A DNA stretch of 39,615 nucleotides from Escherichia phage PSK1. The stretch lies in the sequence record PP541512.1; one strand, 5' to 3'. Positions 17,079-17,333 of the stretch are shown piece by piece. Under the pieces are notes generated by a model. The model was not told where the DNA came from. It ran no database searches and saw only the letters and a list, made by a program, of their open reading frames with translations. The position numbers and the translations under genes are program-made. Numbering within the stretch: the first letter of the stretch is position 1; each line of letters opens with the position of its first letter.

Positions 17079-17333
17079 ATGGACACTATGAAACACTTAA
17101 GCACAATCACTAATAGCAATGAAGTATTCGTGAACACTAAAGGCTATGCGTGGATTCAGCTTAAAGAGATGACAGGAGCGCGTCACCGTGTGGTAGTGCG
17201 CAAGGTATCAAGCAAGCCGTTCAGCAACTACAGCGTAGATACTGTGCGCATAGACAACGAGACATACCTGATAGATTCGCAGATAACCGTGAGTCCTACA
17301 GCGGGCGTCTCAGCTCCTTATTTCGCTAACTGA
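17079..17333 (+). CDS. Early hypothetical protein, first gene of the early operon
   Basis: 84-aa ORF directly after the R0.3-like hairpin; the likelier start is ATG 17088 (AAAGGA RBS, 8-nt spacer). No similarity recognised. Confidence 0.55.
   Translation: MDTMKHLSTITNSNEVFVNTKGYAWIQLKEMTGARHRVVVRKVSSKPFSNYSVDTVRIDNETYLIDSQITVSPTAGVSAPYFAN

Follow-up and report, generated by a model that had tools for sequence, protein, structure and literature searches.

We identified, as the first credible early gene of Escherichia phage PSK1 (sequence record PP541512.1; the whole stretch of 39,615 nucleotides is hereafter called the window), a homologue of gene 0.2 of phage K1F, and we consider with high confidence that it specifies a real accessory early protein carried on a hairpin-bounded cassette. 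For the explanation as a whole, in which this accessory cassette protein serves for counter-defence or for the inhibition of a host factor, we estimate just under an even chance. That the product, gp0.2, is an anti-defence protein is a distinct possibility, somewhat below even; this counter-defence reading was drawn solely from the genomic position and the distribution of the gene.

The window represents a circularly permuted Kayfunavirus (K1F-like) genome, and Kayfunavirus genomes match the surroundings of gene 0.2 at 90-98% identity (best match EcoIv39_Milel, 97.5%; K1F, 90%). Since the large terminase gene ends at 15607 and base 1 of K1F is aligned to window position 16301, the start of the early region is placed near 16.3 kb, with the gene 0.2 ORF beginning 788 nt from the physical left end. 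All the features described below are on the + strand. The strongest sigma-70-like early promoter match, TTGACA-18-TAGTAT at 16866..16895, agrees with the consensus at 10 of 12 positions (a consensus match only); no further promoter-like site follows it before the leader, and in the alignment it coincides with the annotated promoter region of EcoDS1. The boxA-like leader GCTCTTTAACAATCTGG (16972..16988) is a 17-mer identical to T7 upstream of R0.3 and gene 0.3, is unchanged across six Kayfunavirus genomes, and occurs once in the window and never in the shuffles. It is followed by a stable bipartite hairpin resembling an RNase III site, herewith designated R (17012..17068; -22.8 kcal/mol), just 5' of the ORF, of which the flanks align in part with the T7 stretch from the leader to gene 0.3. 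The likeness of both leader and R0.3-like hairpin to T7, which the preliminary description had pointed out, was thus borne out. A Shine-Dalgarno sequence, AAGGA, could be read directly at 17075..17079, and gene 0.2 itself occupies 17088..17333. Downstream lie a second RNase III-like hairpin, R' (17335..17385), the ocr-like gene of 168 aa (17417..17923; Pfam PF08684, E = 5.7e-29; PHROG 2568) and, after gene 0.35, a third copy of the hairpin (18065..18113), the second and third copies being recognised by fold, motif and covariation. In T7 no gene lies between the leader and gene 0.3; the earlier statement of the T7 order and the placing of ocr as the second early gene are both correct.

At this locus an unrecognised ORF of 84 amino acids had been noted. 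The ORF is present on the + strand at 17079-17333, but neither its start nor its description as unrecognised could be retained. The start of gene 0.2 is most likely the ATG at 17088, giving 81 aa, rather than that at 17079, because AAGGA lies 8 nt before the former and abuts the latter, and because the K1F annotation also gives 81 aa and the homologues begin with MKHLS. The spacing from AAGGA to this ATG is the same as that at the ribosome-binding site of ocr. The predicted protein is 97.5% identical over all 81 residues to K1F gp0.2 (CAJ29341.1; K1F CDS 785-1027), and it matches PHROG 10124, annotated as unknown function, over its full length (E = 2e-40; when numbered on the 84-aa reading, residues 4-84 align to positions 1-77 of the 77-position profile). 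Profile match, identity and locus agree in placing it in the K1F gp0.2 family. Record AM084414 of K1F already carries an annotation for gene 0.2, placed between the leader and gene 0.3; the window, from another Kayfunavirus isolate, has this very gene, without substantial difference and likewise flanked by the leader hairpin and gene 0.3. Judging from these matches, gene 0.2 is catalogued but uncharacterised, and the searchable literature yielded no functional study of gp0.2, gene 0.2 or PHROG 10124, nor any paper naming them. A diverged form of a known early gene, envisaged in the preliminary description as an alternative identity, does not agree with the tblastn search, in which T7 gave no match, or with the existence of a PHROG of its own.

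The proposal that this is the first early gene was upheld. The sole annotated K1F ORF upstream of gene 0.2, 'gp0.1' (AM084414; window 16655-16870), was considered as an earlier gene and rejected: a stop codon interrupts the frame in the window and in two relatives, PM139 and EcoIv41_Bia, and the frame overlaps the promoter region. The gp0.1 ORF is probably not a gene on this sequence comparison, and gene 0.2 is taken as the first credible early gene because of this interruption and overlap.

Gene 0.2 was found to be under purifying selection, with dN/dS of 0.09-0.27 against its close relatives (Nei-Gojobori); for the distant homologues the synonymous sites are saturated, with dN of 0.2-0.3. 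The variable sites at the first, second and third codon positions number 8, 7 and 17 in the close set, and 46, 36 and 77 in the wider set. This selection points to translation, against the suggestion that the ORF might be untranslated, and indicates from the pattern of substitution that gene 0.2 encodes a real protein under selection. A core motif, L-S-x-I ... R-K-V-x-S-K-x-F-S-N-x-S-V-D-T-V-R-I-x(4)-Y-L-I-D-S, is kept down to 30-40% identity, and R38, N47, Y60 and D63 are invariant in the family. The protein is basic (pI 9.45, net charge about +3), as are 28 of 30 family members (pI 8.5-10). Two runs of AlphaFold2 gave a six-stranded beta structure of moderate confidence only (mean pLDDT 79.5 and 77.5; pTM 0.66 and 0.62), in which the C-terminal tail past about residue 70, ending in APYFAN, is of low confidence and disordered; the APYF motif of this tail is conserved in many members of the family. 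In Escherichia phage SD6 (L019 985-1230), codon 64 of gene 0.2 is a nonsense codon, and several metagenomic alleles stop at residue 70 without the APYF tail; these natural truncation variants should be useful for learning the role of the tail.

Database searches gave no functional assignment. The scans of Pfam, NCBIfam and PADLOC detected no match for gp0.2 or its distant members (for Pfam, none at E <= 1), and neither did the sequence-profile search of PDB with gp0.2; no likeness in sequence or fold was seen to the solved structures of anti-defence proteins in PDB. In the viral structure library the significant matches were uncharacterised small proteins only, including those of Lelliottia phage phD2B, Acinetobacter phages vB_AbaP APK87 and B09_Aci08, and Proteus phage PmP19. 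Membership in SH3_5 (PF08460) was considered and rejected, since there was no Pfam match and the resemblance is confined to 31 columns at the last beta-hairpin (hhalign probability 65%); this lead had come from an amidase of 1147 aa (P0048), for which the HMM score is the sum of five repeats. Neither is gp0.2 an Ocr-like DNA mimic: PF08684 gave no match, and gp0.2 is basic and beta-rich in contrast to the acidic helical Ocr, the neighbouring ocr-like protein of the window having a pI of 4.05.

The hairpins on both sides of gene 0.2 are of the conserved intergenic bipartite type that is characteristic of the T7-type RNase III sites. The three copies in the window fold with z = -4.2, -2.9 and -2.5, and the motif ACTACAGG...CCTGACTGATAG occurs three times in the window against zero expected. 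The copies share a bipartite stem of 19 pairs, four of which covary by compensatory changes. The Rfam scan of the early region matched no family. As with the T7 RNase III sites (R0.3, R0.5 and others), which follow each early gene and consist of a bipartite stem with an asymmetric internal loop, the Kayfunavirus hairpin is RNase III-like by sequence and fold, and partial identity to the T7 stretch from the leader to 0.3 is seen in TAGCG..TAACT..AGGG. Unlike the T7 sites, the Kayfunavirus copies have flanks of 20 nt in common, and it is there that the junctions of cassette gain and loss lie; we know of no description of such a junction role for the T7 RNase III sites. As a separate observation, the apical 14 nt of the hairpin at window 17027-17056, CAGATGTAGACTCA, is the exact reverse complement of TGAGTCTACATCTG, the orientation carried by K1F, EcoDS1, Bia, AN24P4 and PM139. 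The apex of LNA5 and SR04 is 100% as in the window, while that of most other records is opposite, and it would seem from these sequences that inversion between the arms of the stem flips the tip of the hairpin.

Alignment of the leader-to-ocr interval for six Kayfunavirus genomes revealed four alternative arrangements. In EcoDS1 and EcoIv41_Bia the leader is followed by R and then by ocr, as in T7; in the window and K1F the order is R-0.2-R'-ocr; in AN24P4 a PHROG 9817 gene takes the place of gene 0.2 (R-9817-R'-ocr), its product being 92 aa long; and PM139 carries both genes, each followed by a hairpin (R-0.2-R'-9817-R''-ocr). Outside this alignment, in the IMG/VR contig IMGVR_UViG_2974574648_000001 (L006), the order is reversed, with 9817 ahead of 0.2. 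In the genomes devoid of gene 0.2, the insertion or deletion junctions map to the conserved sequence flanking the hairpin on its 3' side, CCTGACTGATAGTCACTAAC. As read from these alignments, the cassette unit is a Shine-Dalgarno site, an ORF and an RNase III-type hairpin. The PHROG 9817 gene (92 aa, function unknown; L015 1258-1536, L014 ~870-1210, L006 930-1208) is itself an interchangeable cassette of the first slot across Kayfunavirus genomes, occurring by itself, upstream of gene 0.2 or downstream of it. The leader was detected in 199 phage records, and gene 0.2 DNA in about 70 of them; the carriers are mainly phages of E. coli and Enterobacter, with only one among about 50 Salmonella phages. 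Directly after the leader, the SFPH2-type Salmonella phages carry a SAM-lyase-like gene, and Citrobacter phage SH3 carries ocr, as does EcoDS1. Gene 0.2 is taken to be accessory because of these record counts (70 versus 199), the nonsense codon of SD6 and the truncated 70-aa alleles; its loss or truncation in some phages shows that it is dispensable on some hosts at least.

Downstream of ocr, the segment 17920-19200 leading to the RNA polymerase gene (19200-21881) contains only small ORFs, which match K1F genes 0.35-0.38; no homologue of the T7 0.7 kinase is present in this part of the early region, unlike the SFPH2-type Kayfunavirus L026, which does carry a kinase. After the third hairpin, 18133-18360 codes for an acidic protein of 75 aa (pI 4.46; PHROG 32657, function unknown), in which a CDHC motif and further cysteines suggest a small metal-binding module. 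In the ocr-like protein the Pfam Ocr domain covers residues 8-94, and an extension of about 70 aa continues beyond it at the C terminus. Among the relatives Ocr is either long (K1F, SH3) or short with 110 aa (EcoDS1, L006), and gene 0.2 was seen with both forms; coupling of gene 0.2 to the long form was ruled out by L006, which pairs it with the 110-aa Ocr.

The preliminary description had regarded the gene as an insertion. This holds in comparison with T7 and with some Kayfunavirus genomes (EcoDS1, EcoIv41_Bia and Citrobacter SH3); confinement to one lineage does not hold, as the gene is found in several unrelated phage groups. By tblastn, homologues were detected in the Phapecoctavirus myoviruses (nepoznato and phiWec phages, 72-74% identity), in the Ermolevavirus phages phiKT and PGT2, in the N4-like Gamaleyavirus, where the homologue belongs to a group of small genes that lies near the left genome end and is flanked by the annotated genes for RNAP1 subunits A and B, and in the Klebsiella Przondovirus, where the terminase is followed by a gap of about 1 kb and the homologue is again the first gene annotated beyond it. 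Within St11Ph5 and EC1-UPM, which are N4-like, the homologue genes abut or overlap their neighbours. Profile search against 1.84 billion representative proteins gave only 16 gp0.2 clusters, and no relative was detected in 185,579 bacterial and archaeal species genomes, indicating that the family is restricted to phages. Four metagenomic T7/SP6-like contigs (L021, L023, L024 and L025) carry members of 30-40% identity, each with a noncoding gap of some 1 kb before it and the phage RNA polymerase gene downstream; the member is the first called gene past the gap in L021, L023 and L024, and in L025 it is preceded by a 69-aa ORF and has SAM lyase downstream. The distribution of homologues indicates that gene 0.2 is exchanged among unrelated virulent enterobacterial phages and, as judged from gene order, that it is repeatedly the first gene of the predicted early transcript, a slot otherwise held by ocr or SAM lyase. 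In L021 (5001-5570; P0049) the gp0.2 domain is fused to a domain of 110 aa in a single protein of 189 aa, and the latter domain alone forms the first early gene, YpEc11_01, of Yersinia phage vB_YpEc11 (L029 1051-1398); neither an ocr nor a SAM-lyase gene was seen in the early regions of L021 and vB_YpEc11.

The T7 gene 0.3 (Ocr) and the T3 gene 0.3 (SAM lyase) are the canonical first early anti-restriction genes, and in T7 roughly 850 bp at the leading end have entered the cell when transcription begins to draw in the remainder. Gene 0.2 resembles the T7 and T3 gene 0.3 in being the first ORF after a boxA-like leader and an RNase III hairpin, in a region expected to be transcribed by host RNA polymerase during DNA entry, and in the relatives without gene 0.2, ocr or a SAM-lyase-like gene fills its slot. 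It differs in that gp0.2 is without similarity in sequence or fold to the products of these genes, and in that it stands alongside ocr rather than instead of it. The gene 0.2 product would thus be the earliest protein to be translated from the transcript that host RNAP makes of the early region of this K1F-like phage, and the gene would, given a T7-type mode of DNA entry, come to expression while most of the genome is still unexposed. We propose that gp0.2 may bind and inhibit a host factor, most likely a component of defence, by stoichiometric binding through the conserved polar surface RKVxSKxFSNxSVDTVRI...YLIDS and possibly the APYF tail, and that it would act while only the leading 1 kb or so of DNA is inside the cell. 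Cassettes may be added, removed or reordered by recombination between the repeated hairpin flanks, for which homologous recombination would be the simplest mechanism. A more far-reaching reading, which we hold to be rather unlikely as a whole, is that gp0.2 founds a new counter-defence family with an unseen small beta fold as the first phage product, that the hairpins double as recombination joints, and that the leader-to-ocr interval is a shuffling platform whose cassettes comprise gp0.2, the PHROG 9817 protein, the YpEc11_01-type domain, Ocr and SAM lyase.

This setting is similar to the accessory or 'moron'-type regions of phages (Silas et al., bioRxiv 10.1101/2023.04.06.535777), in that small genes of fast turnover occupy a variable slot, itself bordered by conserved sequence, beside a known counter-defence gene, here ocr; the difference from those regions is that the boundaries of the gene 0.2 cassette are structured sites of RNA-processing type. 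Neither gp0.2 nor its relatives are among the 200 accessory genes screened in that study, and the identification of gp0.2 with Aop1/orf7 or another gene of that screen was rejected, as the sequence motifs are absent from its supplement.

The position of the gene, which the preliminary description had taken as favourable for an anti-defence function, is by itself not discriminating, because the small class I proteins of T7 include non-defence factors of host takeover, gp0.4 and gp0.6, which target FtsZ and MreB, respectively. The main rival to the counter-defence reading is a non-immune takeover factor that binds a housekeeping protein and raises the phage yield under some conditions; we regard this as less than likely, though worth serious consideration. 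That such factors exist among the T7 class I genes is established, gp0.2 is a small early protein that some relatives can do without and that has a conserved surface of binding type, and an early region without the 0.7 kinase might be in need of other takeover functions. Patchy distribution and transfer between unrelated families are, however, more typical of genes engaged in an arms race, the slot is one shared with ocr and SAM-lyase genes, and the near-absence of gene 0.2 from the Salmonella branch is difficult to reconcile with housekeeping targets that are nearly identical there. A special case of anti-defence, in which a putative oligomer of gp0.2 would sequester an immune signalling nucleotide in the manner of Tad1, Tad2 or Acb2, appears quite improbable: the very small size and the production as early as possible speak for it, and the invariant polar cluster of R38, S42, S46, N47, S49, D51 and D63 is more in keeping with a pocket for a ligand than with a plain interface, but gp0.2 has no structural match to the solved sponge proteins in PDB, and the disordered APYF tail is more like a protein contact of the peptide-in-groove type.

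Hardly more probable is the view that gp0.2 is a basic beta-protein bound to nucleic acid, either to the entering DNA end or to early mRNA, for nuclease protection or for control of processing or translation. The high pI throughout most of the family agrees with this, as do the all-beta fold, for which the weak Foldseek matches include SSB and Sm-like folds, the 31-residue resemblance to the C-terminal hairpin of SH3_5, and the tight association that the gene shows within Kayfunavirus with hairpins of the RNase III type. The net charge, however, does not exceed about +3, the structural matches are all non-significant (E > 0.6; the hhalign probability as given above), and the gene arrays of N4-like St11Ph5/EC1-UPM and of Phapecoctavirus nepoznato are laid out unlike the Kayfunavirus cassette. 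That the ORF is spurious or non-functional, a leader open by chance or a selfish filler, might be suspected because, of the two GenBank records for K1F, only one annotates it, and because of the SD6 nonsense allele; it is so improbable as to be effectively refuted by the selection analysis, given the strong purifying selection with its third-position excess of changes, the conservation of the protein to 30-40% identity in unrelated phages and the proper Shine-Dalgarno site.

If gp0.2 is a housekeeping takeover factor, the result would be an ordinary one; if the counter-defence reading is true, a new family of inhibitors would have been named, and gp0.2 could help to explain the differences in host range between phages that are otherwise nearly identical. 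The carriers of the family (Kayfunavirus, Przondovirus, Phapecoctavirus and Gamaleyavirus) are phages of therapeutic type for capsulated E. coli and Klebsiella. The natural variants in presence, absence and order of the cassette provide ready-made comparisons of near-isogenic kind, and the hairpin-bounded layout offers a simple rule by which further candidates for early accessory genes can be located in the genomes of the T7 group.
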